Notes under the pieces: model-generated | The model's input: the letters and a program-made list of their open reading frames with translations, nothing else | The model's database searches: none | Told to the model about the DNA's origin: nothing | Program-made: the position numbers and the translations under genes | Shown here: positions 4,567 to 32,269 of the stretch, piece by piece | Numbering within the stretch: the first letter of the stretch is position 1 | Layout of the letters: every line of letters starts with the position of its first letter | Assembly: GCA_913775215.1 (NCBI GenBank) | Contig: CAJYKO010000376.1 | Coordinates: 1-32,269 of the forward strand | From: an uncultured Devosia sp. | Lineage (GTDB): Bacteria > Pseudomonadota > Alphaproteobacteria > Rhizobiales > Devosiaceae | Direction: 5' to 3' | DNA: 32,269 nt

Positions 4567-4690
4567 AGGTATTCTCCCCGTTCCTCGGAATCAGACTCTC
4601 ACGCGTAAAGGCGCCGTGCAATTCAATTTCTCAGGCCAGCAGCACTTAACGCGGAGGCCGCACGGGATGCGCAGCCATCAGCATAATGAC

Positions 4691-5521: not shown

Positions 5522-5665
5522 GTGTCCTCCGCCGGCGAAAATAGCAGAAGGCGCGCCGGAGTGAACCCTGTGCCTTGTGGAAGAGGTCAGTTAAAGCCTT
5601 TGGCAGACCGGCTCCTTTTAAGCTTTTGAACGTTATGGGGAGGCGGAATAAGTCTCCGAGGCACT

Positions 5666-7896: not shown

Positions 7897-8037
7897 GGCG
7901 GCTCCGGAAGATAAAATCGGGCGCAGCATAATGACTTCCAATCTTGTATGGAAGGGTGGGTTTATGATGAAGTCGAAGACTTGCGGCGTTGTGTTGCGCC
8001 CGGCATAAGCCTTGAGGACACGGAGGAGGAAACCGTC

Positions 8038-16186: not shown

Positions 16187-17248
16187 TCAATCGACACGGC
16201 CGCGCGCCGAAACCTGCACGGATTCAACGACTTCCTCGCCGCGCACCAGCGTCACGGTGTCGAAGAGATTGCTCACCGGGCAGCAATGATTGGGCACGAT
16301 CCGGATCGTATCGCCAATTCCAGGCTTTTTCGTGCAGGCCGAAACGTCGAGCGTCCCATGTTCTTCACTGAGCCCCACGATCCGCGCCTCCGGGTAATCG
16401 AGCACATAGCCATGCCCTTCGAGCCCCAGGAGATCGCTGGTCAGCGTCTTTGAGCCAGCATCGATGATCGCCCGCCCCTCGGTCGGCCGCGATACCACCG
16501 TCGCCAACACCGTCAGCGCACACTCGTCATAGCTGGCCGCGCCCGCCGCTACCTGGCTGCGGTCCATATAGATATAGGTGCCCGGCCGGTATTCGGTCGC
16601 GACCCCGGCCTCTTCCATGTGCCAGATATCGGGCGTCCCGCCGGTCGTGATCTCGGGCAGCGGCATGCCCGCACTTTCAAACAGTGCCTTGGCATCTGCA
16701 AGCCAGTCTGCCGCCTCCCGATACTTCTTGGCGGCCGGATAGGTCATCAGCCCGGCAAAATTCGGTCCCGGCAAAACCGCGATCTGCCGCGCCAGCGACA
16801 AGGCCGCCTCGGGCGATTGCACGCCGCACCTTCCCATGCCGGTGTCGCATTCGACAAGAACCCCAAGCGGATGGCTCGCGTCAGCAAAAGTCTCGGCAAG
16901 CCCGATCACCGTCTCGGTGCTGTCGGCGGCGACGCGAATGGTCACCCGATCGTGGAGTGCCTTTAATCTCGCGCGCTTCTTGACGCCGACGATATTGAAG
17001 GTCAGTAGCAAGTCGTCAAGCCCGGCATCGGCCATTACCTCGGCTTCACCCAGCTTCTGCACCGTGATCCCCACCGCACCCAGTTCCACCTGGCGCTTGG
17101 CAAAGCGCGGCAGCTTGTGCGTCTTGATATGCGGCCGAAGTTTTATCCCAGCCTTATCGGCCGCATCTTGCGCCTTTTTGAGGTTGGCTTCGGCCTTGTC
17201 GAGATCGACCAGCACCACCGGGGTTTCGAGTTCACGAATATTGCTCAT
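16187..17248 (-). CDS. D-threonine aldolase/DSD1-family PLP enzyme (candidate amino-sugar-acid ammonia-lyase)
   Basis: RPHIKTHK PLP lysine, GRCGV, EYRPGTY, DAGSK, SEEHG and PNHCC. Confidence 0.9.
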   Translation of the reverse strand: MSNIRELETPVVLVDLDKAEANLKKAQDAADKAGIKLRPHIKTHKLPRFAKRQVELGAVGITVQKLGEAEVMADAGLDDLLLTFNIVGVKKRARLKALHDRVTIRVAADSTETVIGLAETFADASHPLGVLVECDTGMGRCGVQSPEAALSLARQIAVLPGPNFAGLMTYPAAKKYREAADWLADAKALFESAGMPLPEITTGGTPDIWHMEEAGVATEYRPGTYIYMDRSQVAAGAASYDECALTVLATVVSRPTEGRAIIDAGSKTLTSDLLGLEGHGYVLDYPEARIVGLSEEHGTLDVSACTKKPGIGDTIRIVPNHCCPVSNLFDTVTLVRGEEVVESVQVSARGRVD

Positions 17249-18021
17249 TTGCCCCTCAAGACCTCATCGACAAATCTCAGATTACCCGCCGTCAGCCCAG
17301 CATCGACAGGCAATACCGTGCCGGTTATGCCCGAGGCCGCATCGGAACACAAAAATAGCGCCGCATTTGCCACCTCGACCGGGCTCACCATCCGCCCCAG
17401 CGGATAATGGGGCAGCACATTATCAAGAAGGCTCGGATCGGCCGCCAATCGATGATCCCAGGCCGGCGTCCGCACCGATCCCGGCGCCACGACATTAGCC
17501 CGAACCCCCTCGCCCCCGCGCTCGACGGCAAGTGCCTTGGCATAGGCGACAAGCCCGGCCTTGGCCGCCGAATAGGCGGGATTGCCAAAGTGGGCGATGG
17601 CATTGACCGACGAGATGAAGACCAGCGCACCCCGCCCCCGCTCCGCCATCGCGGCCACGATCGGATCGGTCAGCGCATAGGCGCCATTGAGATTAATATT
17701 GAGCTCTGCGGCCCATACCGCATCATCGACCATCCCCAGATGCTCGGCGCGGGTAAAACCGACATTGGCCACCACGGCATCATAGACACCATGGGCCGTG
17801 ATATCTGCGGAAACCGTAGCGCGCGTCGCGGCCATATCCGCCTGGTCGAAGAGGATCGTCCGCTCAAGCGCGATCCCCGCGAGCAGCGCGCTTTCCTTTT
17901 CGGCGCCCACAACCCTGGCGCCGGCATCCTGAAAGACCGCAACCAGCGACCGCCCGATACCGCCACCGGCCCCGGTAATGAGCACAGTTTTGCCATCGAG
18001 GCGGAAGGGATTTTTTAACAC
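17245..18021 (-). CDS. SDR family oxidoreductase
   Basis: TGAGGGIG, YSAAK and VAPGSVRT. Overlaps the next gene by 4 bp; GGAGGA RBS. Confidence 0.93.
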   Translation of the reverse strand: MLKNPFRLDGKTVLITGAGGGIGRSLVAVFQDAGARVVGAEKESALLAGIALERTILFDQADMAATRATVSADITAHGVYDAVVANVGFTRAEHLGMVDDAVWAAELNINLNGAYALTDPIVAAMAERGRGALVFISSVNAIAHFGNPAYSAAKAGLVAYAKALAVERGGEGVRANVVAPGSVRTPAWDHRLAADPSLLDNVLPHYPLGRMVSPVEVANAALFLCSDAASGITGTVLPVDAGLTAGNLRFVDEVLRGK

Positions 18022-18056
18022 TTTTGTTCCTCCAGCGTGAGGGTAGGCCGGCGCTA

Positions 18057-18196
18057 GGTTGTGTGGACAGTTGAGTCAGAGCGAGCCGAAAATGCCGGTT
18101 TTCGAGAACCGGAGCGGAGCGTACATCAGTACGTGAGCACCGGAAGCGGAGAAAATTGGCGTTTGCAGGCCGCTATGGCCAGCTGGGCGCACGACC
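18057..18196. mobile_element. 140-bp MITE-like palindromic element (RPE1-like core)
   Basis: Imperfect terminal IRs GGTTGTGTGGACAGTTG...CAGCTGGGCGCACGACC, TA on both flanks, nested internal palindrome with a CGTAC-ATCA-GTACG apex. Confidence 0.7.
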
Positions 18197-18579
18197 TACG
18201 GCCCTTTATATGCCACGAGATCTATCTCAACCTTGCAATCCACCATCATCCGGCTCTGCACGCAGGCCCGCGCCGGCGGATGCTCGCTAAAGTAGCTCTT
18301 ATAAACCCCGTTAAAACTCCAGAAATCCCGGGGATCATCGAGCCAGACGCCGACGCGGACCACATGTTCGAGCCCATAATCGGCCTCTTTTAAAATCGCG
18401 AGCACGTTCTGGATGGTCAGGTGTGTCTCCTCGACAATCCCACCCCGAACGATCTCGCCATCCTTCATCGCCACCTGCCCGGACACATAGAGCCAGCCGC
18501 CGGCTTCCACCGCGCGGGCAAAGGGGAGGTTCTGGCCACCGGCACCGGACTTTTCAGTCCCATAACGCTTGATCGGCAT
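18196..18579 (-). CDS. RidA family enamine/imine deaminase
   Basis: LYVSGQV, FNGVY, PARACV and VEID motifs. Confidence 0.92.
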   Translation of the reverse strand: MPIKRYGTEKSGAGGQNLPFARAVEAGGWLYVSGQVAMKDGEIVRGGIVEETHLTIQNVLAILKEADYGLEHVVRVGVWLDDPRDFWSFNGVYKSYFSEHPPARACVQSRMMVDCKVEIDLVAYKGP

Positions 18580-18600
18580 GGCTGCATCCTTCCAGGAAAA

Positions 18601-18689
18601 TGAAACTCAATTTCTCTTTTGGTCCATATTGCTGGGTCTTTGAAGCGAGAAACATGGTTTTTTGAATCTGCCGATGTAAATTTCTTACG
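18601..18689. promoter_or_regulatory. Two candidate RpiR/HexR-type operators in the ridA / M81 divergent promoter
   Basis: TGAAA-CTCAA-TTTCT (18601-18615) and TGTAA-ATTTC-TTACG (18675-18689). Confidence 0.5.
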
Positions 18690-18769
18690 TGAAGCACCGC
18701 AAACACCGTGCTAGGCTCGATCAGCGCGAACACTCGCGCCCTCATGTCCCCAGCCTTTGGAAATCTGTC

Positions 18770-20227
18770 GTGCGCGTCTTCACCGCGGCCCTCGCCACCG
18801 AGACCAATACCTTCTCTCCCATCGCTGTCGACAAGCGTGCTTTCGAAGCCTCGCTCCATGCTGGGCCCGGCGAACATCCCACCACCCCCACCCTTTGCAC
18901 TGCCCCGATCACCGTCGGTCGTGAAGTGTGCGCGAAAGAAGGCTGGACCCTGATCGAAGGCAGTGCCTCCTGGGCCGATCCCGCCGGCCTCGTCGCGCGC
19001 CAAACTTATGAAGAGATGCGCGACACGATCCTCGGCCAGCTTGAGGCCGCCATGCCCGTGGACGCCGTCGTCCTCGGCCTTCACGGCGCCATGGTCGCCC
19101 AGGGCTATGACGATTGCGAAGGCGATCTGCTCGCCCGCGTCCGTGCCATCGTCGGTCCTGACATCCTGGTTTGCGCCGAACTCGACCCCCATAGCCATCT
19201 CACCGCCAAGCGCGCTGCGGCCGCCAATTTCTTCGTCTACTTCAAGGAATTCCCGCATACCGACTTCGTCGATCGCGCCCGCGACCTCTGGGACATCGCC
19301 GTCCGCACTCTCAAGGGCGAGATCAAGCCGGTCATGTCGATCTTCGATTGCCGGATGATCGACGTTTTCCCGACCTCCAAGCAGCCCATGCGCGGTTTCG
19401 TCGACAAGTTGCTTGCCCTCGAACAGTCCGAGCCCAGCCTTCTGTCCCTCTCCGTCGTCCACGGTTTCATGGCCGGAGACGTGCCCGAAATGGGCACCAA
19501 ACTGCTTGCGGTCACCGACAATGATCCCACCAGGGGCGCCGCCCTCGCCGAAACGCTCGGCCGCGAACTCTTTGCCATGCGCGGCACCTTCATGGTTGCG
19601 CAGGTCGATGAGCAAACCGCCGTCACCGCCGCCCTCGCCGCGCCCGAGGGGCCGGTGGTCATCGCCGATGTCTGGGACAATCCCGGCGGCGGCACGGCGG
19701 GCGATGCCACCGTCCTCCTCGCCGAGCTCATCCGCCAAAATGCCACCGACGTCGCCGTCGGCACCATCTGGGACCCGATCGCCGTCCAGATCTGTTTCGC
19801 CGCCGGCGAAGGCGCTGAAATCCAGCTTCGCTTCGGCGCCAAATCCGCGCCTTATACCGGTCAACCCATCGACAAGCGCGTCACGATAAAAAGGCTCGTC
19901 CGCGACGCCCAGATGCGCTTCGGCGAAAGTTTCGCCCCCTTCGGCGACGCGGCCTGGATCCACTTCGACGGCATCGACGTCATCCTCAACTCCACCCGCG
20001 CCCAGAGCTTTGATCCGAGCCTGTTCTCAGCCCTCGGTATCGATCCAAAATCGCGAAAGATCCTGCTGATCAAGTCGACCAACCACTTCTACGACTCGTT
20101 CTCGAAAATCGCGTCCGAGATCATCTACTGCTCGGCCGGCAAGCCCTATCCCAACCGCCCCGCCGAAACCGACTATCGCAAGGTACGCAGGGACATTTGG
20201 CCAATGGTGGAGAATCCGTGGGGGTGA
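18770..20227 (+). CDS. M81 family (MlrC-like) metallohydrolase, copy 1
   Basis: ETNTFSP, LHGAM, LDPHSH, EFPHTD and DNPGGG. GTG start at 18770. Confidence 0.92.
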   Translation: MRVFTAALATETNTFSPIAVDKRAFEASLHAGPGEHPTTPTLCTAPITVGREVCAKEGWTLIEGSASWADPAGLVARQTYEEMRDTILGQLEAAMPVDAVVLGLHGAMVAQGYDDCEGDLLARVRAIVGPDILVCAELDPHSHLTAKRAAAANFFVYFKEFPHTDFVDRARDLWDIAVRTLKGEIKPVMSIFDCRMIDVFPTSKQPMRGFVDKLLALEQSEPSLLSLSVVHGFMAGDVPEMGTKLLAVTDNDPTRGAALAETLGRELFAMRGTFMVAQVDEQTAVTAALAAPEGPVVIADVWDNPGGGTAGDATVLLAELIRQNATDVAVGTIWDPIAVQICFAAGEGAEIQLRFGAKSAPYTGQPIDKRVTIKRLVRDAQMRFGESFAPFGDAAWIHFDGIDVILNSTRAQSFDPSLFSALGIDPKSRKILLIKSTNHFYDSFSKIASEIIYCSAGKPYPNRPAETDYRKVRRDIWPMVENPWG

Positions 20228-20245
20228 TCTGTCCCAATCTCGATT

Positions 20246-20312
20246 GTCACCCCGGCTAAGGCAGGGGCCCATCCTGAAATCTCAAGATGGCTCCCCGCCT
20301 GCGCGGAGATGA
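20246..20312. repeat. REP-like doublet (GTCAYYCC type)
   Basis: GTCACCCCGGCTAAGGCAGGGGCCCATC ... GATGGCTCCCCGCCTGCGCGGAGATGA: an inverted pair of hairpins. Confidence 0.65.
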
Positions 20313-20381
20313 AAGCCGGTGCATAACGGAAGTCTAACCAACTCCGTCTTCCCCGCCGCTCAACGCTAACGGAATGCTAAC

Positions 20382-20409
20382 AAAAAGCCGCCGTTTCTGA
20401 GCGGCGGCT
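20382..20409 (-). terminator. Rho-independent terminator of the hexosaminidase transcript
   Basis: Minus strand AGCCGCCG-loop-CGGCGGCT followed by a T run, 20 nt after the stop. Confidence 0.75.
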
Positions 20410-20429
20410 CCTGTCATTTAAGGCTATTT

Positions 20430-22442
20430 TTACTCCGCCGCCCAATGCCCATACATGATCGGCATCAGCCCCACGAGCGCCCTGAACCGCTCCCAGCTTT
20501 TGCGCTCCGGCAACGTCCAACCGGCTTCCGCAATCGCCGAAAGCCGTGGGAAAACAAGGCGATCGAAGATGGCGCGATCCGTCATTGACTCGCTCCAGAT
20601 GCAGCTCTGAATCCCGAGAAGGTGCTTCAAGCCATCTTCCGAAAACCCTTCCCGGGCCTCGAACTCATAGGTCTCCTGCGGACCCGACCAGCCAGCCCAA
20701 CCGGCACCCGGCTCGGCCCAGGAAATTCCGTTTGCCATATCAAGGTAATAGCGCTGACCGGGCGAGACGACGATATCAAATCCGCGCTCAGCGAGCGCCG
20801 CATTGATCTCCACATTGCGCCAGCCGATGACATAGGATTTCGCCTTGTCCACCGCATCGCCATGCGCCGCTTCTTCCCAGCCGCCTGTTATCGCGCCCTT
20901 CGAAGAAATATAAGCGTGCACGCGCTTGATGAACTCGGCCTGGAGGATCGCGGTCGGTGAGCCTTCAATTTCGTCGGCGCCGTGATGATTGCCCAACTGG
21001 TTGAATTGCTTGGCATGTTTCTCGCGCATGGCGGGGCCGGCCATCTTCTCGAGCATGTCGAGCGCCAGCGGCGAGCCCGACCAGGCCGCCAGCGGCACTT
21101 CGTCGGCACCGAGGTGGAAAATGCCCGCCGGGAACAGCTCAAGCACTTCGTCGATCACCGTTTCGACGAACTTATACACGGGCTCATGCGCCGGATTTAG
21201 ACTGTTGTTCGGAAAGCCCTGAACCGATTGGTATTCACCGGTCTCGTTGGGGTCGCGCAATTCGGGGAGGGCCTGCAGCGCCGCATAAAAGTGTCCGGGC
21301 ATATCGACTTCCGGGATCACGGCAATGCCAAGACTATCGGCCAGCGCCACGATCTGCCGGATGACTGCCTTCGAATAAAAGCCGCCGGTCGGCTGCGGAC
21401 CAGAGCCAAGCAGCGGCGGCAAGGCCTTGCCGTGACCGCGCCAGGCCGCAACCTCGGTCAGTGCAGGATAGGCGTCGATCTCGATGCGCCAGGCCTCGTC
21501 TTCGGTCAGATGCCAGTGGAACTTGTTCATCTTGTTCCAGGCCATGATCTTGATGAGCTGGCTCACCTCGGCCCCGGTATAGAACTGCCGCGCCACATCG
21601 AGATGGCTACCGCGGAAGGCAAAGCCCGGCTCGTCGCTGATCGTGCCGCCGGTCGGGAAGCTGAACGTATGCGGATAAAGCTTTGCGCCGCGCAACATAT
21701 GCCCGAGCGTTACGAGGCCATAAAACAGCCCCTGCCGCGTCGTCGCCCCGACGCTGACGCTGTTCTCGCTGAATGCCAGCTCATAGGCTTCCGGCCCCAT
21801 GCCCGGCTTTTCGGCGATTGTCACCGGCATGCCGGCTTCTGAAGCCGGCCGCACCAGCGCTTCCACCGGGAAAAGATCATGCGTGAGCCCGGTAAAGGCC
21901 GTCGCCGCCCGGTTCGCTGCCACGCCCTGCGGCTGCAGGTCAAGCCCGACCGGCGCGATGCGCGATCCCGTCGTCGCCACAGATTTGGGCCAGGGACTGA
22001 TCGAATGCGCCACCGGCGCCTTGGCCGGCACCGGGAACTTTACCGCCCCCTTCAAAAGCGGCGCATTGTGTCCCTTGCCCTTGGTCGGCAAAGTCGGAAT
22101 GGTCACGACCTGCCCATTTCCCAGCACCACATAGGCCGAATTTGCGCCGTCGCTCCAATGCCTTAGCCCATAGGAGAGCCCACGCGCCGTCGCCGTCCAG
22201 GTCCCGCCGGGTTCAAGCACGAAACCATCGGGCGGTGCGATCAGCGTGTGGTTGGAGAGGCGTTTTAGGAGCTTGCCATTTTCCAGCGTCGCATGCGGAT
22301 CGACCCGCGCCGGCCCCGAAAACCCAAGCTGGAAATTGCTGACCGGTTCGTCGCCGATATTGGTCAACTCGATGCCATAGCCCAGCGCCTCGCTGTCGGA
22401 GGCTGGAGTCCAGGTGGTGACGAGCGAAAATTGTGCGGTCAT
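20430..22442 (-). CDS. GH20 beta-N-acetylhexosaminidase, no signal peptide
   Basis: FRGSHLDVARQF, HWHLTEDEAWR, PEVDMPGH, catalytic HLGADE, IWSE and FPRLSAIAE. Confidence 0.95.
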   Translation of the reverse strand: MTAQFSLVTTWTPASDSEALGYGIELTNIGDEPVSNFQLGFSGPARVDPHATLENGKLLKRLSNHTLIAPPDGFVLEPGGTWTATARGLSYGLRHWSDGANSAYVVLGNGQVVTIPTLPTKGKGHNAPLLKGAVKFPVPAKAPVAHSISPWPKSVATTGSRIAPVGLDLQPQGVAANRAATAFTGLTHDLFPVEALVRPASEAGMPVTIAEKPGMGPEAYELAFSENSVSVGATTRQGLFYGLVTLGHMLRGAKLYPHTFSFPTGGTISDEPGFAFRGSHLDVARQFYTGAEVSQLIKIMAWNKMNKFHWHLTEDEAWRIEIDAYPALTEVAAWRGHGKALPPLLGSGPQPTGGFYSKAVIRQIVALADSLGIAVIPEVDMPGHFYAALQALPELRDPNETGEYQSVQGFPNNSLNPAHEPVYKFVETVIDEVLELFPAGIFHLGADEVPLAAWSGSPLALDMLEKMAGPAMREKHAKQFNQLGNHHGADEIEGSPTAILQAEFIKRVHAYISSKGAITGGWEEAAHGDAVDKAKSYVIGWRNVEINAALAERGFDIVVSPGQRYYLDMANGISWAEPGAGWAGWSGPQETYEFEAREGFSEDGLKHLLGIQSCIWSESMTDRAIFDRLVFPRLSAIAEAGWTLPERKSWERFRALVGLMPIMYGHWAAE

Positions 22443-22485
22443 ACTTCTAATTCCTAATATCTTTCAATATCTTGGCTTGAACACA

Positions 22486-22549
22486 TCATTCCCGCGCCAG
22501 CAGGAATCGCTGCTGGAGCAAAAGCGATTTCCTGCTTGCGCGGAAATGC
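22486..22549. repeat. REP-like doublet
   Basis: TCATTCCCGCGCCAGCAGGAATCGCT...AGCGATTTCCTGCTTGCGCGGAAATGC inverted pair. Confidence 0.65.
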
Positions 22550-22550
22550 C

Positions 22551-23417
22551 CTAATCCCCGAGCGGCTGCCCGTCGTCGCCATCGCGATTGACGACGAGCT
22601 GGTGCTTGATGCGGCGCATGCTGGCGACGGCCGAAGGGCCGAGCCGGGTCGCAATGGTTTGGGCCAGAACATCGACCGTCGCAAGAAAGGCATAGCGGCC
22701 GGGCGTGGGCCGCAGGATATCGGCGTTCTCATGCCAATTGACCGGCAGCAGAATGTCGGATTGTGCCGAGACCAGCGACCCCGATCGCGTCGCAACCACC
22801 CGCGTCAGCCCATATTCACCCGCCACCGTCAGCGTCTTGGCGAGCTGCGCATTGTTGCCCGAGAGCGAGAAAGCAACGATCACCGTACCGGCCGGCGCAG
22901 CCGCAACACGCATCAGTTGCAGTTGGTGGTCGTCGGTCGAAGCGACCTTTAGACCCAGCCGGAACAGCCGCGTTTCGATTTCGCCGGCCATCATCGACGA
23001 GGCGCCGCCAGAACCGAAGGACAGCACAAAGCTCGACTTCGCGATGCTCTCCGCTGCCCGCTCCACTGCATTGAAATCAAGCTGTTCGAAGGTTTCGTAG
23101 ATGATCGACTGGATGCCGTTGACGACGCCCTGCGCGATCTCATGCACATTGGTCGGCCCGGCAGCCGGGGCGAAATAGCGCTGGCCGACAAAGCGAGATT
23201 GGGCCAGCCGCACCTTAAAGTCGGCGTAGGAATCGCAGCCGAGCCGGCGGCAAAAGCGGGTCACCGTCGGTGGCGACACCTCCGCCTGGGCCGCAAGATC
23301 GACGATGCTGAGCTTGAGAACGCTATCGACATCGGCGAGCACGATCTCGGTCAAGGCGCGCTCGGACCGCGTAAAGCCGTTCTTTTCGGTCTGCAACAGG
23401 CCGACGATGTCGAGCAT
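22551..23417 (-). CDS. MurR/RpiR family transcriptional regulator
   Basis: HTH VSPPTVTRFCRRLGCDSYADFK plus a SIS domain (FSLSG). GGAGG RBS before ATG 23417. Confidence 0.93.
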   Translation of the reverse strand: MLDIVGLLQTEKNGFTRSERALTEIVLADVDSVLKLSIVDLAAQAEVSPPTVTRFCRRLGCDSYADFKVRLAQSRFVGQRYFAPAAGPTNVHEIAQGVVNGIQSIIYETFEQLDFNAVERAAESIAKSSFVLSFGSGGASSMMAGEIETRLFRLGLKVASTDDHQLQLMRVAAAPAGTVIVAFSLSGNNAQLAKTLTVAGEYGLTRVVATRSGSLVSAQSDILLPVNWHENADILRPTPGRYAFLATVDVLAQTIATRLGPSAVASMRRIKHQLVVNRDGDDGQPLGD

Positions 23418-23445
23418 GGTCCCTCCCCCGGAGAGCATGACGCGG

Positions 23446-24522
<1,077 letters not shown>

Positions 24523-24581
24523 TTTGCGCGGCTCCGGTCGGCGGGGCGGTTCCCGCGGGCAGGCATTCTGGGAAAGTGTGG

Positions 24582-24611
24582 CCACCGCCGCCCCCGAGAG
24601 GGCGACGGCGG
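24582..24611 (-). terminator. Stem-loop 3' of the solute-binding protein gene
   Basis: 12-bp stem that pairs fully only on the minus (mRNA) strand via two G-U pairs. No U-tract. Confidence 0.6.
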
Positions 24612-24623
24612 GATCAGACGAGG

Positions 24624-25847
24624 TTACTTGTACTGCTCGAGTTCTGCAGCGGCCGTCTCGAGGGCAGCCTGCGGCTCGGCAGCGCCGGTCACGACGGACT
24701 GCACCATCTCGATCAGCGTGTTCTGCAGGCCGATATAGTCGGTGAACAGCGGCTCGGGACCACCGAATTCGATGCCGTCGAGGAACGGCTTCCAATAGGG
24801 CTTTTCGGCGAGGAGCTCAGCTGTTTGCGGCTCAAGCGGACGGAGAGGGGTCAGGCCCTGTGCCATTTCGGCATCCCACTGGCGTTCGCCGGATGTGATG
24901 TACTTGGCAAGGCTAGTTGCCTGCTCTTCCACCCCTGTACCCTTGAAAATGGCAAGTGCGTCGGTGATCAGCAGCGTGCCAGGACCCTTGGCATCCGGGC
25001 CGAGTGGCAGCGGTGCAACGCCCCAGTTCATACCCTTCTCGGTGGCAAGGTTACCAGCGTTGGGAGAGGCTTCGATCATGGCGACGCCACCATCGAGCCA
25101 GATCGCGCGAACTTCGTTTTGTTCGTAGGCGGTCGGGCCCTCTTCGGAATAGGGCGTGATGTCCTTGATTGCGGTGAGGGCAGCCAGGACCTGCGGGGAA
25201 TTGATGACGATATTGCCATCGGCGTCGATCACGAGACCATCATTGGTGTAAACCCAATGAAGGAACTGATGCATGGTGTTGTCAAAGGTTTTGGCGACGA
25301 GGCCATAGCCCGCAGCGTCAGTCTTTTCGGTAATCTGCTTGGCGAAAGCGATTTTTTCTTCCCAAGTCTTGGGCGGCGTTTCCGGATCAAGCCCGGCCGC
25401 TTCGAACAGGTCCTTGTTCCAGTAGAGGGCTTTGGTCGAGAAAGCGACAGGAACGCCCCACTGTGTACCATCGAAGGTGACTGTATCAGGGACGTAGTTG
25501 TAGTAACTCGCTTTCTCTTCGTCGGTCATGGGCACGGGGACAATCAGGTCGTTCTGGGCGAACTGCTTGAGCGTGCGCGAGCCGACATAGGCGAGTGCAA
25601 CCGGCGTGCCCGCGGCAGCCAGTGTGGTTACCTTGTCCTGGCACTGCCCCCAGCCGACCACTTCTGGCACGACCTTATAACCTGGGTTTTCGGCTTCCCA
25701 CTCAGCGAAATAGTCAGCGTAGCCAGCGGTCAGCTCGTCGCCGCAGTTGATGAAGGAGATTTCCTTCACGTCCTGAGCGAATGCACCGGTCGAAGCGCTG
25801 GTCAATGCCAGCATCGAGACGGCCATCAAACCGAAAGTCTTGTTCAT
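24624..25847 (-). CDS. Carbohydrate ABC transporter substrate-binding protein
   Basis: Signal peptide MNKTFGLMAVSMLAL...AFA and LYWNKDLFEAAG..PKTWEE. GGGAG RBS. Confidence 0.93.
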   Translation of the reverse strand: MNKTFGLMAVSMLALTSASTGAFAQDVKEISFINCGDELTAGYADYFAEWEAENPGYKVVPEVVGWGQCQDKVTTLAAAGTPVALAYVGSRTLKQFAQNDLIVPVPMTDEEKASYYNYVPDTVTFDGTQWGVPVAFSTKALYWNKDLFEAAGLDPETPPKTWEEKIAFAKQITEKTDAAGYGLVAKTFDNTMHQFLHWVYTNDGLVIDADGNIVINSPQVLAALTAIKDITPYSEEGPTAYEQNEVRAIWLDGGVAMIEASPNAGNLATEKGMNWGVAPLPLGPDAKGPGTLLITDALAIFKGTGVEEQATSLAKYITSGERQWDAEMAQGLTPLRPLEPQTAELLAEKPYWKPFLDGIEFGGPEPLFTDYIGLQNTLIEMVQSVVTGAAEPQAALETAAAELEQYK

Positions 25848-25945
25848 TATAGTCTCCCTTGATTTGGGTCCCCTCGGACCCACTTCGGAAACCGGTCGTC
25901 GCCTTTTGGAACGTCGAGCGGTTTCCAATTCTATGTGCGTCCCGC

Positions 25946-26914
25946 CTATTGCTTGACGGCCCCTGCTGTCAGGCCGGCGACAAGATAGCGCTGTAGGAAC
26001 ACGATCACGACCATGACCGGCAAAATGCCGACGAAAGAGGCCGCCATCAGCTCATTCCAGACCACTTCCTGCTTGCCAAAGAACGCAAATAGCCCGATCG
26101 GCAGCGGCATGAATTCGGTCTTTGAATTGAAGGTCAGTGCAAAGATGAACTGCTGAGCATAGGCGCCAATGAAAGTCATGATCGCAACAACGACGATGCC
26201 GGGCATGGCAAGCGGCAGGATAACGCGGCGCAGTGTGTAGATGCGGCTCGCACCGTCGACCCAGGCGGCTTCGTCGAGCTCACGCGGAATACGCATCATA
26301 TAGGTTCGCAAGAGCCAAATCGAGGATGGGATCAGGAAGGCTGCTCCTGGCACGATCATGGCGAAATATGTGTTGAGCAGACCCAGGCTGCGCATCAGGC
26401 GGAACAGTGGGATCAGAAGCACGGCGCCCGAGAACATGTTCACGGCAAGAAACAGGCCCAGCAGTACGCCAGCGCCAGCGAAGTTGAAGCGAGCAAACGC
26501 GTAGGCGGCAGGGACGACGATGATGACCACGATCAGCGTCACAATGCTCGAGATGAAGAAGGAATTGAAGATGTGCATGCCCAGCATGGGGACCGAGGTC
26601 CACATGTTGATATAGGCATCGAATGACCAGACCTTGGGGATGAAGCTATAGGGTGTCGAAAAAAGCTGCGAGAGCGGCTTGAGCGAGACAAGGAAGCCTT
26701 CAATGAAGGGAGCCAGCACGAAAAATAGAAAGACAGCTATTCCGAGATAGAGCCCGGCGACCTCGTACCACTTATAGCGGTCGATCATGGCCTTGGCTGG
26801 CTTGGTACGGGATTTCATACGCTGCTTGGCGCTGACTGCCGCCAAGCCCGCAGTCCCCGCAGCAAGCGGATAGGAGCCCGTAGGTACCGGGGAATTGGCG
26901 TTTTCAGCGCTCAT
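25946..26914 (-). CDS. Carbohydrate ABC transporter permease (MalG-like)
   Basis: EAA motif IPRELDEAAWVDGAS; six TM segments. Confidence 0.93.
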   Translation of the reverse strand: MSAENANSPVPTGSYPLAAGTAGLAAVSAKQRMKSRTKPAKAMIDRYKWYEVAGLYLGIAVFLFFVLAPFIEGFLVSLKPLSQLFSTPYSFIPKVWSFDAYINMWTSVPMLGMHIFNSFFISSIVTLIVVIIVVPAAYAFARFNFAGAGVLLGLFLAVNMFSGAVLLIPLFRLMRSLGLLNTYFAMIVPGAAFLIPSSIWLLRTYMMRIPRELDEAAWVDGASRIYTLRRVILPLAMPGIVVVAIMTFIGAYAQQFIFALTFNSKTEFMPLPIGLFAFFGKQEVVWNELMAASFVGILPVMVVIVFLQRYLVAGLTAGAVKQ

Positions 26915-27798
26915 TTGGCTTCTCCCTGCTGGAGCCTGCGAACCGCACGGAAATAGGCCAGGCAGAAGATCGACACGAAGATACAGATGACGACGGCCCG
27001 AGCAGCGCCTTCCCCATATTTACGGCTGCCGATTGCGGTCTTGTAGGTGTCGATGATCATGGTCGTGGTCGATCCCGAGGGACCGCCCTGGGTCAGGATC
27101 CAGATGATGTCGAACGAATTGAATGTGGCGATGAGCGAAAGTAGGCTCATTGTGATGATAGCCGGCACCATCAGCGGCAGCGTGATCCGGCGGAAGCGAT
27201 AGGCGCGGCCGGCGCCATCAGTCCAAGCCGCCTCATAAAGATCCTTGGGGATCGATTGCATGGCAGCTAGGAAATAGATCGTCACCATCGGGACTCCGAT
27301 CCAGACGTCGGTGATGATCGTCGCCCAGAAGGCGGTATTGCCATAGGCGAGCCAGGCGACCGGACCATTGACGATTCCGAAGTTCTGAAGGAGCCCGGAG
27401 ATCATCCCGAACTGGCCGTTATACATCCAGCCCCACATGAAAATCCCGATCGCCATGGGGACGATCCAGGGCGGCATGGTCAGCACCCGAAAGAGCGTCT
27501 GACCGGGAATGGCGGCATTGAGCAAAACTGCACCGCACATCCCGATGATCATCTTGATCGAAACCGAAAAGAAGGTCCAAACGAAGGTGCGAATGATCAC
27601 GTCGGTAAAATTGCCCGCACCGAAGATGCGCAGGTAATTGGTCCAGCCGACAAAATCATAGGTCTGCTTGAGCGATGCGTTGGTAAAACTGAGAAGGACC
27701 GTATCAAAGAGCGGATAGGCGACGATCACCGTGATGTAAATCAGTGCCGGAGCCAGCAGGGCGAAGGCGAAGAGTGTTGCGCTACGGGTGCTGGTCAT
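26911..27798 (-). CDS. Carbohydrate ABC transporter permease (MalF-like)
   Basis: IPKDLYEAAWTDGA and FVGWTNY. GGAG RBS before ATG 27798. Confidence 0.93.
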   Translation of the reverse strand: MTSTRSATLFAFALLAPALIYITVIVAYPLFDTVLLSFTNASLKQTYDFVGWTNYLRIFGAGNFTDVIIRTFVWTFFSVSIKMIIGMCGAVLLNAAIPGQTLFRVLTMPPWIVPMAIGIFMWGWMYNGQFGMISGLLQNFGIVNGPVAWLAYGNTAFWATIITDVWIGVPMVTIYFLAAMQSIPKDLYEAAWTDGAGRAYRFRRITLPLMVPAIITMSLLSLIATFNSFDIIWILTQGGPSGSTTTMIIDTYKTAIGSRKYGEGAARAVVICIFVSIFCLAYFRAVRRLQQGEAK

Positions 27799-27811
27799 CG
27801 GCTTTTCTCCC

Positions 27812-28966
27812 TCAGCTCGCTCGGCCCAAGGCGGCATCGAAGCGCTGCCAGATCGGGGCCATATCGACGACGGTCCTGGTTTTCATCGCCTCATCCATCG
27901 AGAGCGCCAGGAGCCCCGCCTCAAGCGCATCGATCACAGAAACCGGCAGCGGCGCACCTTCGATCATGTGCTTCAAGATGTCTTCGGCCATCTGCTCGTC
28001 GGCCCCATAATGGGCCGAGAGATCACTCGCCTGATAGGTCTTGTCTTCGAGCCGCTCGGACGTGCGGCTATCGGTGACCTTGAAATAATTGCGGACGAAA
28101 TCGCCCTCTGCCATGCCCCTGGCGCCGATCACGGCAAAGCGGCGGTAATCGTCGGGCACGTTGAGATTGGTGTGGAAGGTCAGCGCCGCACCGTTTTCGT
28201 ACTGCACCATCGCAGTCTGGAAATCGATGATGTCGCCATCGCTGTCGAAGACGTTTTCCGTGCCTTCCCAGCCCGACGGCTTGCGGTGATAGACTTCGAG
28301 GTCGTTGGCACCCGCGCCTTGCGGCGCATTCTTGGGCACGAAGCTGCGTCGGCCGCCAAAGCTCGAGACATAATGCGGGCGGCAGCCCATGACCCCATTA
28401 TAGAGATCAAGATCGTGGCAGCACTTTTCGAGCATGAAGCCGCCGGCATATTTGGCGTACCGCCGCCAATCGCGCATGAAAAAGGCGCCGTGATAGGGCG
28501 GAATGGTTTCGGACGCCTCGATGGCAGCAATATCGCCGATCTTGCCTTCGGCCTGAGCCTTGCGCAGATCGATATAGAGCGGGGCATAGCGCAGCACGAG
28601 GCCGACCATGACATTGTCCGAGCCATATTGGGCGATGAGCTCGGCCAGTGCCATGGTTTCTTCAACCGAGGTCACGACGGGCTTTTCGGCAAAAATCTTC
28701 ATGCCGCGTTCAAGCCCAATCCGAATGTGCTCAAGATGCATATGATTGGGCGAACCGACCATCAGGAGGTCGAGATTGCCTTCGTCGATCAACGCCTCAA
28801 GCGAGCCATAGGCCTTGCCGACGGAAACGCCATGTTCTTGGGTGTAGGGCAGGCCGGCCGGCGCTGGGTCGACATAGCCAACGATCTCGAAATCGTCCCG
28901 CGCCGCTGTAAAAACGCGCGCCAGATATGCAAGACGATAGCCGAGGCCGATAATGCCTACCCGCAT
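27812..28966 (-). CDS. Gfo/Idh/MocA family oxidoreductase
   Basis: GIIGLGYR, SPNHMH, FAEKP and EKCCHDLD. Confidence 0.93.
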   Translation of the reverse strand: MRVGIIGLGYRLAYLARVFTAARDDFEIVGYVDPAPAGLPYTQEHGVSVGKAYGSLEALIDEGNLDLLMVGSPNHMHLEHIRIGLERGMKIFAEKPVVTSVEETMALAELIAQYGSDNVMVGLVLRYAPLYIDLRKAQAEGKIGDIAAIEASETIPPYHGAFFMRDWRRYAKYAGGFMLEKCCHDLDLYNGVMGCRPHYVSSFGGRRSFVPKNAPQGAGANDLEVYHRKPSGWEGTENVFDSDGDIIDFQTAMVQYENGAALTFHTNLNVPDDYRRFAVIGARGMAEGDFVRNYFKVTDSRTSERLEDKTYQASDLSAHYGADEQMAEDILKHMIEGAPLPVSVIDALEAGLLALSMDEAMKTRTVVDMAPIWQRFDAALGRAS

Positions 28967-29022
28967 GACGACGATATTCCCTGCCTATAAACCGCGAGCC
29001 TCTTTTTGGGCCGCTGTCGTTG

Positions 29023-29037
29023 TGTAAACTATTTTCA
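29023..29037. promoter_or_regulatory. Candidate RpiR-type operator upstream of the gfo-ABC operon
   Basis: TGTAA-ACTAT-TTTCA. Confidence 0.5.
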
Positions 29038-29267
29038 AGCCTAGGCGGCTAAATGACACAATGTCAACATAAATTCGGATGCCTGACAATACCAATTTAA
29101 ACCACCCGCTTGCACTGCCCTTTTGGGCAGCACTTTGCTTTATTTCTAAGCTTTTAGTCGGAGTTTGTCAGCATTTTGGGTGTGGACAAGATCCGGCTTT
29201 CATCGCAGCATGATGCAATTGGTATCCATGTGGCCTCTTTCAGGATTGGCCCTTGGAATGACATGTC

Positions 29268-29282
29268 TGAAAATCTGATACA
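29268..29282. promoter_or_regulatory. Weaker candidate RpiR-type operator upstream of the rightward genes
   Basis: TGAAA-ATCTG-ATACA. Confidence 0.35.
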
Positions 29283-29336
29283 GTCGCCGGAAACCGTTCG
29301 CTCACGCAGCAAGGTGGCTGGCGCAGAGGAAGCCTA

Positions 29337-29831
29337 GTGAGCCTGTCCGCGAACCCTTTTCCCAACGACGCCGATCGCTCGGCCATCTGGACCATGCTGG
29401 TCCCACGCGATATCGCCGCCTATGTCGCCGCCGACTGGTCCATGGTCGAAGGCGATTTCGTCGCCGATGATTTCATGGGCATCAACGGCAACAAGAACGA
29501 CAACCCCGATGGCTGGACCATCAGCTTTCCCACTCTTGCCGAATATCGCGACGAATGGCTGCGACAGGCCCACGAAGGCCAAGCCCAATCCTATGCCGAA
29601 GACGTGGAAGCCGGCATTCATCGCGCCACGAGCCTCAACGAAATCGAAATCACCGGCACCCGCGCGATTGCGCACAAGAAATTCAATGGCGAAATCAAGC
29701 TCAGCAATGGCGGCGTCGATCGCCTGAATTGGCAAACCCTCTACTTCTGCCGCAAGGTCGAGGGGCAATGGAAGCTGACGGGGTTCGTGGGTTATTTGCC
29801 CTATCCGATGGGCTTGCCGACGTCCCGCTAG
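29337..29831 (+). CDS. NTF2/SnoaL-like hypothetical protein
   Basis: DIAAYVAADW helix, then beta strands ending CRKVEGQWKLTGF. GAGGA RBS, GTG start. Confidence 0.75.
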   Translation: MSLSANPFPNDADRSAIWTMLVPRDIAAYVAADWSMVEGDFVADDFMGINGNKNDNPDGWTISFPTLAEYRDEWLRQAHEGQAQSYAEDVEAGIHRATSLNEIEITGTRAIAHKKFNGEIKLSNGGVDRLNWQTLYFCRKVEGQWKLTGFVGYLPYPMGLPTSR

Positions 29832-29833
29832 GG

Positions 29834-29893
29834 CAAATCGCTCCAGTGGAGCGAATTGAGGCGGCAAGGCCATGAGAGCTATGCTCGAATGGC
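29834..29893. repeat. Double-hairpin intergenic palindromic element
   Basis: CAAATCGCTCCAGTGGAGCGAATTG and GCCATGAGAGCTATGCTCGAATGGC hairpins. Confidence 0.55.
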
Positions 29894-29926
29894 TGGATAG
29901 CTCCCAACTTCCGGCACTCTCCTATT

Positions 29927-29981
29927 CTACTTCCACTCGGAGAGAGGGTGGCTCGGGCAAAGCCCGAGACGGGTGAGGGGG
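29927..29981. repeat. Degenerate alphaproteobacterial GAGAGGG...GGGTGAGGGG palindromic repeat
   Basis: GGAGAGAGGGTGG-CTCGGGC-AAA-GCCCGAG-ACGGGTGAGGGG. Confidence 0.55.
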
Positions 29982-30015
29982 AATGGCGCGAAATATAAAT
30001 TGAATGGCAGGGAAC

Positions 30016-31203
30016 ATGATCAACTTCACCCCACAGCGCCTGACCATGCTGGCCTTCTTCCTCCAGCCCGTCGCCTTCGGCTCCTGGCTGCCGCGCATCC
30101 CCGAGATCCAGGCAGGCCTTGATCTCGGGCCCGCCGGGCTCGCACTCGCCCTTCTCGGCATGCCCTGCGGAACACTGATCACCCTGCCTTTCGCCGGTCC
30201 GCTCGTTGCCAAGATCGGTGCACGCGCCGCCATCTTCTGGGGCTTCGTGTTCTATTCGGCAGCCGTTAGCCTGCCGGTATTGGCGCCGCATCCGATCCTC
30301 CTCTTCATCGCGCTGATGCTGGCCGGTTCAGCCATTTCCTTTGTCGAACTCGGGCTTAACGTGCAGGCCGATCTCGTCGAAAAATCGAGTGGCAAGCTGA
30401 TCATGAACACGTCCCATGGCTGCTGGTCCCTCGGCATCATGGCGGGCAGCCTCATCGGTTCGGGCTTTGCCGCCATCGGACTTGCCCCGCAAAGCGCCGT
30501 GCCGCTCCTCGCCGCCATCGTCCTGCCCATCGCGCTCGCCACAGCGACCGCCCTGCCAAAACTTCATGACGCACCAGCCGACGGCCAGACGCAAAAATCC
30601 GCCTGGTCGCTCCCGAGTCCCGCCTTGATCGGCATCTGTCTTTTCGTCTTCGGCATCACCATGACCGAGGGCGCCATGGCCGATTGGTCCGCCATTTTCC
30701 TCCGTGATGCCCTCTCGGCCGAAGGCGGTCTCGTCGGCCTCGGCTATTCGCTCTTTGCCTTCATGGTCGCCGCGGGCCGCTTTGGCGGAGATTTTCTCAA
30801 GCGCCGTTTCGGCGCCATCCGCACGGCCCGCCTCTGCGGCGCCCTCGCCGTTATCGGCGGTATTTTGCTCTTTTTCGCACCGGGGGTCGAACTGGCTCTG
30901 GTGGGTTTTGGCATCATCGGCATCGGCGTGTCCGTCGGCTTCCCGCTCGCCGTCACGGCCGCAGCAGGGCTTGGAGATCGTGCCGCCTCGGCCAATGTCG
31001 CTGTTCTCTCCTTCGTCGCCCTCACCGGCTTTCTCATCGGCCCGCCGCTGATCGGGTTCGTCGCCGAACATGCCGGCATCCGCATCGGCATTGCCTGCGT
31101 CGTGCCCTTTCTTCTCCTTAGCCTCTTGCTCACCGGCCGCCTCGTGCCCAGGCCGATCAAGAGCACCCATAATCCCGAAGCCGAAGTTCCAGGAGTGCTC
31201 TGA
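30016..31203 (+). CDS. MFS transporter
   Basis: About 12 TM segments; GSWLPRIP and EGAMADWSAIFL motifs. Confidence 0.92.
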   Translation: MINFTPQRLTMLAFFLQPVAFGSWLPRIPEIQAGLDLGPAGLALALLGMPCGTLITLPFAGPLVAKIGARAAIFWGFVFYSAAVSLPVLAPHPILLFIALMLAGSAISFVELGLNVQADLVEKSSGKLIMNTSHGCWSLGIMAGSLIGSGFAAIGLAPQSAVPLLAAIVLPIALATATALPKLHDAPADGQTQKSAWSLPSPALIGICLFVFGITMTEGAMADWSAIFLRDALSAEGGLVGLGYSLFAFMVAAGRFGGDFLKRRFGAIRTARLCGALAVIGGILLFFAPGVELALVGFGIIGIGVSVGFPLAVTAAAGLGDRAASANVAVLSFVALTGFLIGPPLIGFVAEHAGIRIGIACVVPFLLLSLLLTGRLVPRPIKSTHNPEAEVPGVL

Positions 31204-32269
31204 TGCGCATTGCCGTTGCCGGTCTCCATACCGAATGCTCGACCTACAATCCCGTCATCGCGCGCGAAGCCGATTTTCGCGTGCTGCGCGGCCCCGCCAT
31301 GCTGCGCGATCAGTATTTTGATTTCCTGACGCACTTTCCGGCCGAGTTCATCACCGTACTCCACGCCCGCGCCATTGCCGGCGGCGCCGTCGAACGCGCA
31401 CTCTATGACAAGTGGAAAGCCGAAATTCTCGATGGCATAAGCGCGGCCATGCCGCTCGATGGCGTCTATCTCGCCATGCATGGCGCCATGTTCGTCGACG
31501 GCATGTTCGATGCCGAGGGCGATTTCATCGCGGCCGTGCGCGACCTCGTCGGCCCCGACGTCTTGATCGCCGCGAGCTATGATCTCCATGGCAATGTCAG
31601 CCAGAAAATCATTGACGGGCTCGATATCTTTTCAACCTATCGCACCGCGCCCCATATCGACGTGCCCGATACCATGCGCCGCGCCGTCGCCATGCTGATC
31701 CGAGCCTTGCGCACGGGCGTCCGTCCAAAGCTCGCCTGGGCGCCCGTTCCGGTCCTCCTTCCCGGGGAACGCACGTCCACCCAGGACGAACCCGCCAAAA
31801 GCTTTTACACTCAGCTCCATGAGGTCGAAGAACCGACCGGTATCTGGGATGCGTCTTTCCAGGTCGGCTATGTCTGGGCCGACGAACCTCGCGCCACCGC
31901 CTGCGCCGTCATCACAGGCACCGATAATGCCGCTATGGAAGCGGCCGCCACGAAGCTCGCGCAGGATTATTGGGATGTGCGTGAAAAGTTCGTCTTCGGC
32001 ATGGAGACCGGCTCCATCGAGGACTGCGTCGATAGAGCCATAACCAGCACCACCCATCCCGTCGTCCTTGCCGAATCCGGTGACAATCCTACCGGCGGCG
32101 GCGTCGGCGATCGCGCCGAAGTGCTGGCCGCCCTGATCGCCAAAAATGCCCAAGGCGTCATCTTCGCCGGCATCGCCGATCGCGCCGCGACTGATGCCGC
32201 CTATGCCGCCGGCACCGGCGCCACCCTGCCCCTCCATATCGGCGCGAGCCTTGATCCCTCTTCAACCCC
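31203..32269 (+). CDS. M81 family (MlrC-like) metallohydrolase, copy 2 (3' end runs off window)
   Basis: Manual translation from the TGATG overlap: MRIAVAGLHTECSTYNP, MHGAM, YDLHGN, YRTAPHID and DNPTGGG. Missing from the ORF track. Confidence 0.9.
   Translation, partial: MRIAVAGLHTECSTYNPVIAREADFRVLRGPAMLRDQYFDFLTHFPAEFITVLHARAIAGGAVERALYDKWKAEILDGISAAMPLDGVYLAMHGAMFVDGMFDAEGDFIAAVRDLVGPDVLIAASYDLHGNVSQKIIDGLDIFSTYRTAPHIDVPDTMRRAVAMLIRALRTGVRPKLAWAPVPVLLPGERTSTQDEPAKSFYTQLHEVEEPTGIWDASFQVGYVWADEPRATACAVITGTDNAAMEAAATKLAQDYWDVREKFVFGMETGSIEDCVDRAITSTTHPVVLAESGDNPTGGGVGDRAEVLAALIAKNAQGVIFAGIADRAATDAAYAAGTGATLPLHIGASLDPSST

Follow-up and report, generated by a model that had tools for sequence, protein, structure and literature searches.

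The stretch of DNA studied here, referred to as the window, comprises 32,269 nucleotides from an uncultured Devosia sp. (contig CAJYKO010000376.1 of assembly GCA_913775215.1). It is contig C376 of a 3.2 Mb genome of 74.6% completeness, the nearest named relatives of which are Devosia. Its right-hand part carries a gene cluster that may encode an oxidative route for the catabolism of N-acetylhexosamines (HexNAc). From left to right, the cluster consists of genes for a pyridoxal 5'-phosphate (PLP) enzyme, a short-chain dehydrogenase/reductase (SDR) and a RidA protein on the minus strand; an M81-family hydrolase (M81a) on the plus strand; a glycoside hydrolase of family 20 (GH20), an RpiR regulator, four CUT1 ATP-binding cassette (ABC) importer genes and a Gfo/Idh/MocA protein (Gfo) on the minus strand; and a 164-residue protein, a major facilitator superfamily (MFS) transporter and a second M81 hydrolase (M81b) on the plus strand (Table 1). 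An earlier note on this DNA missed the 164-residue protein, which has an NTF2/SnoaL fold. The clustered genes that it did name all lie where it put them, and the active-site motifs examined (those of M81a, M81b, GH20, the SDR and the PLP enzyme) are intact.

Table 1. Genes and sequence elements of the window (positions are those of the whole stretch; E, E-value).
Feature	Position	Strand	Basis and remarks
KdgK-like kinase	7948..8949	+	NF052444, E 1e-87, below cut-off; outside the cluster, 7 kb away, in a hexuronate context (uxuB-like neighbour)
Fold-type III PLP enzyme, dehydratase type; predicted hexosaminate ammonia-lyase (OngC role)	16187..17248	-	PF01168+PF14031
SDR, PRK07074-like; predicted N-acetylhexosamine 1-dehydrogenase	17245..18021	-	Best model PRK07074, below cut-off; closest structure 5TT0, E 4e-57
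RidA-family protein (putative OngD role)	18196..18579	-	PF01042; co-located in most loci
One-mismatch operator copy	18675..18689	+	Between RidA and M81a; conserved in same-genus loci
M81a metallo-amidohydrolase; predicted N-acetylhexosaminate deacetylase, non-homologous to OngB	18689..20227	+	PF07364+PF07171
Bidirectional terminator-like hairpin	20386..20409		Between M81a and GH20; consensus match only
GH20 beta-N-acetylhexosaminidase	20430..22442	-	Vibrio Nag2-like (6EZR, E 1e-91)
RpiR/HexR-family regulator (presumed OngR role)	22551..23414	-	In 67/80 SDR loci
CUT1 ABC importer	23446..27798	-	ATPase 23446-24522, binding protein 24624-25847, permeases 25946-26914 and 26911-27798
Gfo/Idh/MocA protein	27812..28966	-	First gene of the ABC operon; nearest structures 8QC2/8QC3, E about 1e-24
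Palindromic operator TGTAAACTATTTTCA	29023..29037		Precedes the Gfo-ABC operon; no other exact site in the 3.2 Mb genome
Two ATTGGTAT boxes	29089..29225		29089-29096 minus, 29218-29225 plus; a matching element precedes nagQ on contig C191
NTF2/SnoaL-fold protein, 164 residues	29337..29831	+	Conserved with the cluster; 716 homologs
MFS transporter	30004..31203	+	Travels with M81b and GH20
M81b, second M81 hydrolase	31203..32269	+	Cut by the contig end; DUF1485 and five motifs; C-terminal domain beyond the window

The cluster resembles the Ong pathway of Pseudoalteromonas prydzensis, which, according to two reports, consists of a GH20 enzyme (OngA), a deacetylase (OngB), a deaminase (OngC), a RidA protein (OngD), KdgK and a regulator, OngR (PMC9537276, PMC12017989). 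As described there, OngB deacetylates N-acetylglucosaminate, OngC releases ammonia and 2-keto-3-deoxygluconate (KDG), KdgK phosphorylates KDG, and OngD is required for growth. The route that we propose for the window likewise has no prior phosphorylation and takes sugar-acid deacetylation, PLP-dependent deamination and a 2-keto-3-deoxy acid kinase in the same order; a fold-type III PLP deaminase, RidA, GH20 and a dedicated regulator are also clustered in both. In this model, the ABC system would import a HexNAc or a short glycoside, GH20 would free the HexNAc in the cytoplasm, the SDR would oxidise it at C1, the sugar acid so formed would be deacetylated by M81a, and deamination by the PLP enzyme, assisted by RidA, would then yield a 2-keto-3-deoxy acid. 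The product would be either 2-keto-3-deoxygalactonate (KDGal), destined for DgoK and DgoA (dgoK and dgoA lie on contig C162 of the same genome), or KDG, destined for KdgK. The core of this predicted chemistry, namely an M81 deacylase, a PLP ammonia-lyase acting with RidA, and a cytoplasmic oxidant that stands in for a lytic polysaccharide monooxygenase (LPMO), had been proposed in the earlier note, and it finds good support in gene swaps, operon layout and catalytic residues. The 74.6% complete genome has no LPMO (PF03067) match. We hold it quite probable that M81a, the PLP enzyme and RidA form an acid deacylation-deamination module, and we put the chances of a cytoplasmic oxidative route for HexNAc, probably for N-acetylgalactosamine (GalNAc) above all, at about even.

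M81a has the DUF1485 and MlrC_C domains and the E/H/D/H/H metal site of its family. MlrC cuts an Adda-Glu amide using E56, H150, D184, H186 and H208 (PMC12474180), and the M81 fold thus hydrolyses amides of acyl-amino acids. M81a shares both domains with MlrC microcystinase C (PDB 7YLQ, E 2e-109), and all five metal-site residues align. Microcystin degradation was nonetheless rejected as its function. Unlike MlrC proper, M81a scores 394.7 bits against a cut-off of 999 for NF041767, has no mlr genes nearby and lies in an amino-sugar context. Its true start is probably a GTG near 18770. The gene of another genome (G015, C9 203915-205370) matches in two pieces and may be frameshifted.

One link between M81a and sugar acids comes from operons in which its place is taken by another enzyme. 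In loci of Nitratireductor and of the Ochrobactrum type, M81a belongs to an operon made up of RidA-permease-permease-binding protein and SDR-ATPase-RpiR-PLP-hypothetical protein. The same operon in Microvirga pakistanensis (L158) and in locus L172 has a 533-residue D-aminoacylase at its other end, which matches P. prydzensis OngB (9KB1) with an E-value of 2e-74, and no M81 gene is found in the locus. In genome G425, an SDR-ABC-RpiR unit without M81 nearby is accompanied elsewhere by a unit of RidA, D-aminoacylase, RpiR and PLP genes. M81a and OngB-family D-aminoacylases are therefore alternating deacylases of one operon type, which argues for M81a as a non-homologous OngB. A D-aminoacylase query found no match in the window genome (74.6% complete) nor, at E 1e-30, in genomes G014, G002, G156 and G224. 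A third operon type (L059, L064, L074 and L184) shares the SDR, the PLP enzyme and RidA; its other genes are for an NMT1-type ABC system, different Gfo proteins, a fusion of SnoaL with a flavin monooxygenase and, replacing M81, a PRK09237-type amidohydrolase.

In other operons, M81a is associated with an acid transporter. Tripartite ATP-independent periplasmic (TRAP) systems transport organic acids, and in Phaeobacter gallaeciensis the operon comprises RpiR, a TRAP transporter, M81a, the PLP enzyme, a KDG/KDGal-type kinase and RidA. Genome G224 has an operon of this type into which DgoK and a 2-keto-3-deoxy-6-phosphogalactonate aldolase (above cut-off) are inserted; KdgK lies within the operon only in L052, L060, L062 and L086. 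The presence of M81a, the PLP enzyme and RidA in roseobacter acid-transporter operons with KdgK or DgoK/DgoA supports an oxidative route.

These operons also bear on whether deacetylation comes first. In that order of events, an M81 enzyme, most plausibly M81b, would convert free GalNAc or N-acetylglucosamine (GlcNAc) to the hexosamine, which would then be oxidised by the SDR and deaminated, or be phosphorylated by a ROK or PfkB kinase and enter a route with a SIS-domain isomerase. Sinorhizobium meliloti grows on GalNAc, and the kinase route proposed for it needs a deacetylase that its metabolic model lacks; M81b is placed with a ROK kinase and CutC; L059, L064 and L074 have the SDR, the PLP enzyme and RidA without M81; and a deacetylate-then-oxidise route has been predicted for haloarchaea (PMC12343721). 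However, M81a occurs with TRAP transporters and no SDR, and it swaps with the OngB family, of which OngB acts on the acid and not on GlcNAc (PMC9537276, PMC12017989). In addition, the M81-free loci L064 and L074 carry the other amidohydrolase. We therefore consider deacetylation first unlikely for the cluster as a whole, although this order may hold for M81b alongside the oxidative route.

M81b comes from a separate M81 clade, is 31% identical to M81a and is linked to GH20, MFS, ROK kinase and CutC genes. It would likely deacetylate a different, perhaps neutral, substrate. Of the two M81 hydrolases that the earlier note drew into the pathway, only M81a is tied to the step in which the acid is deacylated. 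The M81b gene extends into contig C259; the stretch shared by that contig and the window end is 500 bases long and has 27 mismatches. Beyond it (C259 939-2458) lie a DeoR/GlpR regulator and a 247-residue protein, both kept in G014 and G005; the G014 ortholog of the latter gave no Pfam or NCBIfam match. The M81b gene of G010 (L026 14346-15408) matches in two pieces and may be frameshifted. CutC recurs with a ROK kinase, M81b or the SDR-ABC unit (L029 11379-13048, L042, L102, L184 and contig C140 of the window genome, where a ROK kinase gene lies with cutC), and these partners suggest an amino-sugar rather than a copper role for it.

The residues of the PLP enzyme argue for a predicted beta-elimination. 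By overall sequence its nearest solved structures are D-threonine aldolases, and the earlier note had raised the possibility that it acts only as such an aldolase. According to PMC4401734, D-threonine aldolases keep His193 as the base together with His347 and Asp349, whereas the dehydratase has a His and a Cys and no His193. The aldolases 4V15, 7DIB and 6QKB accordingly show H-x-D and an insertion bearing His193, and the dehydratase 3WQC shows H-x-C. In the window enzyme and 17 homologs, the Schiff-base lysine K42 and the H321-x-C323 motif are unchanged (18/18), and the His193 segment is missing in 17 of the 18. Aldolase identity was therefore rejected: the enzyme is closer overall to D-threonine and hydroxyaspartate aldolases (4V15, 6QKB) but lacks their Asp ligand and His193 segment, and it shares fold type III, the lysine and the His/Cys metal ligands with D-serine and D-threo-3-hydroxyaspartate dehydratases (3ANU, 3WQC). 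Beta-elimination also fits RidA as a partner. Identity of 27% to the PLP enzyme of a D-aminoacylase-RidA-RpiR operon and a match to 3GWQ at E 5e-13 suggest that the window enzyme belongs to a subfamily other than that of OngC.

Several observations concern its homologs elsewhere. On an E. coli plasmid (L053 9305-14085), a 37% identical homolog lies with an M20 hydrolase, RidA and an MFS gene, adjoining IS26, and L075 holds a comparable unit of PLP, M20 and RidA genes; the M20 family may supply this module with a third kind of deacylase. Most sampled Mesorhizobium-type genomes have the PLP gene away from the cluster, and its divergent neighbour at L056 8362-10281 is a gene of the D-lyxose isomerase family. 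In Phyllobacterium sp. 628 (L041 17740-18788), the PLP gene matches in two pieces and may be frameshifted.

An alternative explanation of the module is that M81, the PLP enzyme and RidA scavenge N-acyl-D-amino acids or peptides containing D-Ser or D-Thr, the sugar genes being a separate neighbour. In a quick tree of 67 M81 sequences, the window M81a falls inside a context-defined clade of 29 rows (SH-aLRT 99, the only support measure used), and many M81a-like rows outside this clade, indeed most, adjoin peptide ABC systems. OngC itself deaminates D-Ser and D-Thr (PMC9537276), and the closeness of the PLP enzyme to D-threonine aldolases points the same way. A PLP gene is nearby in 21 rows of the clade and in 1 of 20 other M81a-like rows, a contrast inflated by the choice of some rows through PLP or SDR anchors. 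Scavenging of D-amino acids is nevertheless highly improbable in our estimate: KdgK and DgoK/DgoA occur within M81a-PLP operons, the link to the SDR and a sugar ABC system survives many rearrangements (69/80 loci), and one operator type precedes both the sugar-import and the M81a genes.

The oxidant of the proposed route is probably the SDR. Its residues S138, Y150 and K154 are invariant, and residue 41 is acidic in at least 90% of 15 aligned sequences. In SDRs, an acidic residue after the second strand indicates a preference for NAD, so the enzyme is likely NAD-dependent. No N-acylmannosamine dehydrogenase structure was among its 54 SDR matches at E 1e-25. Within the M81a clade, the SDR is present in 21/21 loci with a CUT1 sugar importer (6 picked by the SDR, 15 not) and absent in 6/6 loci linked to TRAP or Opp systems (for three of these, wider flanks were checked). 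Such a distribution would be expected if TRAP systems bring in, already formed, the acid that the SDR produces.

The earlier note had named either the SDR or Gfo as the oxidant, and only the SDR tracks the importers of neutral sugars. It could still be that Gfo is the net oxidant, or that it starts a C3-oxidation and elimination route in which the SDR performs a later step. Gfo heads the ABC operon directly under a conserved operator, and sugar dehydrogenases are among its relatives. However, Phyllobacterium, Nitratireductor, Mesorhizobium and Microvirga loci combine a sugar ABC system, the SDR and a deacylase with no Gfo ortholog nearby, and Gfo never occurs without the SDR in the loci examined, the apparent exception (L087) having an SDR just upstream. 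Gfo occurs in a single subclade only, and Phyllobacterium-type operons do without it. We regard a role for Gfo as the oxidant as very unlikely. Gfo shares an EKCCH motif with 8QC2/8QC3 and aligns to them over only about its N-terminal half; they are distant and almost tied with inositol dehydrogenase. Y127 and H319 of Gfo are invariant (12/12). We take proteins of the 8QC2/8QC3 type to be NAD-dependent glycosidases of the GH109/GH188 type; Gfo is possibly an NAD-dependent glycoside-cleaving enzyme.

The evidence on the substrate comes largely from S. meliloti, in which the corresponding cluster occupies 892.6-907.9 kb of pSymB. There, smb21160 encodes the GH20 and smb21152 the ATPase (PMC4961836), which identifies the binding protein as SMb21151; the window binding protein is 66% identical to it. 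SMb21151 is labelled as induced by galactosamine only and SMb21135, of an amino-acid-type ABC system, as induced by galactosamine and glucosamine (PMC6421345 Table S4); these labels are second-hand, from that table and PMC4961836. The PLP ortholog of S. meliloti (55%) is found at 773 kb. A different strain has this gene divergent from an amino-acid ABC system with RidA and adjoining a hexosamine ABC/SIS/PfkB operon; we infer that these two operons correspond to smb21134-38 and smb21216-21. The system of SMb21135 thus matches the one divergent from the PLP gene. Deletion B181, which removes the cluster, gave activity scores of 9 versus 9 on GlcNAc, 0 versus 5 on GalNAc and 0 versus 5 on glucosamine, and deletion B180, which removes the PLP ortholog, gave 0 versus 5 on GalNAc and 8 versus 9 on GlcNAc (PMC4961836). 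These data are consistent with our proposal and are not proof of it, because the authors ascribe the loss of GalNAc growth to other deleted genes. Taken together, galacto sugars are more probably than not a main substrate. N-Acetylmuramic acid was set aside as a substrate because DgoK and DgoA imply a galacto configuration.

A more conventional possibility is that the same chemistry serves only chitin-derived GlcNAc and ends in KDG, which was the framing of the earlier note. The closest relative of GH20 is Vibrio Nag2; L023, L042, L126 and L128 have nagQ-nagB-nagA or nagA next to the cluster; TGGTAT boxes are common to the cluster and the region upstream of nagQ; and L052, L062 and L086 carry KdgK-like kinases. 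On the other hand, GlcNAc growth is unchanged after removal of the cluster, galactosamine is the sole inducer listed for SMb21151, and the G224 operon contains DgoK/DgoA. A second GlcNAc route would also be redundant: as the earlier note had observed, nagK, nagA and nagB were not found in the window, but this carries little weight, since an intact nagA/nagB-II set lies on contig C191, where nagQ-nagB-II-nagA is next to a murQ-like gene. Restriction to GlcNAc is thus quite unlikely, as induction and growth data point more to GalNAc or galactosamine and to KDGal.

The gene set is conserved together across Alphaproteobacteria, as the earlier note had asked of its own proposal. Orthologs of M81a (74-92% identical) occur in 23/24 same-genus genomes, the one miss being 62% complete. 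By hand counts from tables, the PLP gene lies at most 4 kb from M81a in 21/24 and M81b at most 16 kb away in 18/24; the frequencies of M81a and of the nearby PLP gene indicate that the clustering is not due to chance. DgoK, which also serves galactose use, is present in 23/24. Among seven same-genus regions, four keep the order from PLP to Gfo, two are split or inverted, and one (G020) differs in having nagQ-nagB-nagA in place of the PLP gene. Rearranged versions are found on Rhizobium etli p42e, R. johnstonii pRL11, S. meliloti pSymB, an Ensifer megaplasmid and a Loktanella plasmid, the last of which additionally carries nagA, a ROK kinase and cutC; the counterpart genes are about SMb21148-62 with SMb21134 in S. 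meliloti and pRL110485-505. GH20, nagA, ROK and CutC genes recur adjoining the cluster in separate families. Around the SDR (best 80 of at least 581 loci, 9 kb flank, mostly Devosia, Mesorhizobium, Phyllobacterium and Ochrobactrum-type genomes), M81a was found in 69 loci, a CUT1 binding protein in 68, RpiR in 67, the PLP gene in 45, RidA in 44 and GH20 in 18.

Several points weigh against the oxidative GalNAc route. The locus counts are not independent tests, because the loci are related by descent and were partly chosen by these genes. A PLP gene of at least 45% identity was nearby in only 4 of 20 M81a-anchored loci drawn from 37 genomes, 10 of 20 PLP-anchored loci (picked from 35 matches, one or two per genus) were without any cluster partner, and S. 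meliloti, G020 and most Mesorhizobium have the PLP gene apart from the cluster. L130 has the SDR and ABC genes with neither a deacylase nor the PLP gene. The growth losses of B180 and B181 are also explained by the authors' kinase-isomerase-tagatose route, and wild-type S. meliloti scored 0 on glucosaminate, as on N-acetylmannosamine and N-acetylneuraminic acid (PMC4961836). Free galactosamine is the inducer on record, an observation that deacetylation first would explain just as well. A lactonase was not identified, and the parts of the literature that were searched held no enzyme assay or single-gene mutant.

The palindrome TGTAAACTATTTTCA is likely the site of RpiR, the binding of which we infer. 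Its consensus, TGWAAW-N3-WTTWCR, was built by eye from Devosia intergenic and rhizobial hyp-RidA regions; the operator lies upstream of Gfo in 13/14 orthologous loci and in 10/11 among regions not used for the consensus. The one-mismatch search is weak alone, with 5 matches against 1.4 expected. Upstream of the SDR, the operator was present in only 8/51 Phyllobacterium-type loci (second-type ABC), with no exact site elsewhere in 860 kb, and it was not found at the TRAP/Opp operons examined. NagQ presumably binds TGGTAT; the 8-mer ATTGGTAT occurs 67 times in the genome. A sigma-70 scan did no better than shuffles.

GH20 has no hydrophobic N-terminal stretch and hence no signal peptide, and its catalytic pair D447-E448 is present (HLGADEV at 443-449). 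Two Haladaptatus (haloarchaeal) plasmids match the binding protein with E below 1e-40. An alignment-based model of the 164-residue protein has a confidence (pLDDT) of 94.6 (39 for a single-sequence fold) and matches many NTF2-like chains with Z about 12 and a root-mean-square deviation of 2.5-3.5 A over 118-138 residues, with no standout match; a lactonase or other accessory step would be our guess for its role. Outside the cluster, the KdgK-like kinase could accept KDG. Its gene, masked by an over-long 779-residue minus-strand open reading frame call, is divergent from a fructuronate-reductase-like gene (about 6424-7850, minus strand), with a LysR gene next. A xylose-isomerase-like TIM barrel, an L-fucono-lactonase-like amidohydrolase and a HutG-like gene lie at 3730-6427; the M81a block of G004 (L034, 16078-17798) is likewise flanked by the first two of these, which makes the amidohydrolase a candidate lactonase. 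At 10767-11747 (minus strand), 4.4 kb from the cluster and with no linkage seen, is an HGSNAT_cat (PF07786) membrane protein; this domain is also that of NagX, a proposed glucosamine transacetylase.

In its predicted workings the cluster parallels the Ong pathway, but the absence of the defining deacetylase places it outside that pathway; it is likely a variant with a non-homologous deacylase and a likely cytoplasmic dehydrogenase. The window deacylase is of the M81 fold and that of Ong a D-aminoacylase; an ABC importer and the SDR stand where Ong has an LPMO, a TonB receptor and a sodium:solute symporter (SSS) transporter; the GH20 is without a signal peptide; galacto sugars are likely substrates alongside gluco sugars or in preference to them; and KdgK lies outside the cluster. 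Phosphorylative routes (NagK/NagA/NagB, and Smb21217/Smb21218-tagatose for galactosamine, PMC4961836) serve the same sugars and are often genomic neighbours, whereas the window cluster has no kinase and its predicted route oxidises instead. A close M81 homolog was present in 37/400 sampled Alphaproteobacteria genomes. In the parts of the literature searched, microcystin cleavage was the only M81-family function found, with nothing linking M81/MlrC to amino-sugar catabolism and nothing on galactosaminate catabolism; PMC9007349 and PMC13260240 do not mention M81, the available parts of PMC3403918, PMC3687685 and PMC3738161 hold passing mentions only, and PMC3333776 has nothing on these cluster genes.

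In summary, an undescribed, LPMO-independent pathway from GalNAc through N-acetylgalactosaminate and galactosaminate to KDGal, widespread in rhizobia, Devosia and roseobacters, is a tentative reading that we rate at somewhat below even. It would identify the gene sequences of an N-acetylhexosamine 1-dehydrogenase and of a galactosaminate ammonia-lyase. The M81a clade, in replacing OngB, would be a second, independently evolved sugar-acid deacetylase, and the M81 family, proteins of which are common in Alphaproteobacteria, would take on a mainstream function and form a new class of carbohydrate deacetylases. For S. meliloti, which grows on GalNAc where its metabolic model predicts no growth (PMC4961836), the cluster would offer a missing route. 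In bean bacteroids of one strain, the ortholog of the binding protein is up 5.2-fold, which hints at a role in the nodule; in pea bacteroids of another strain it shows no significant change.

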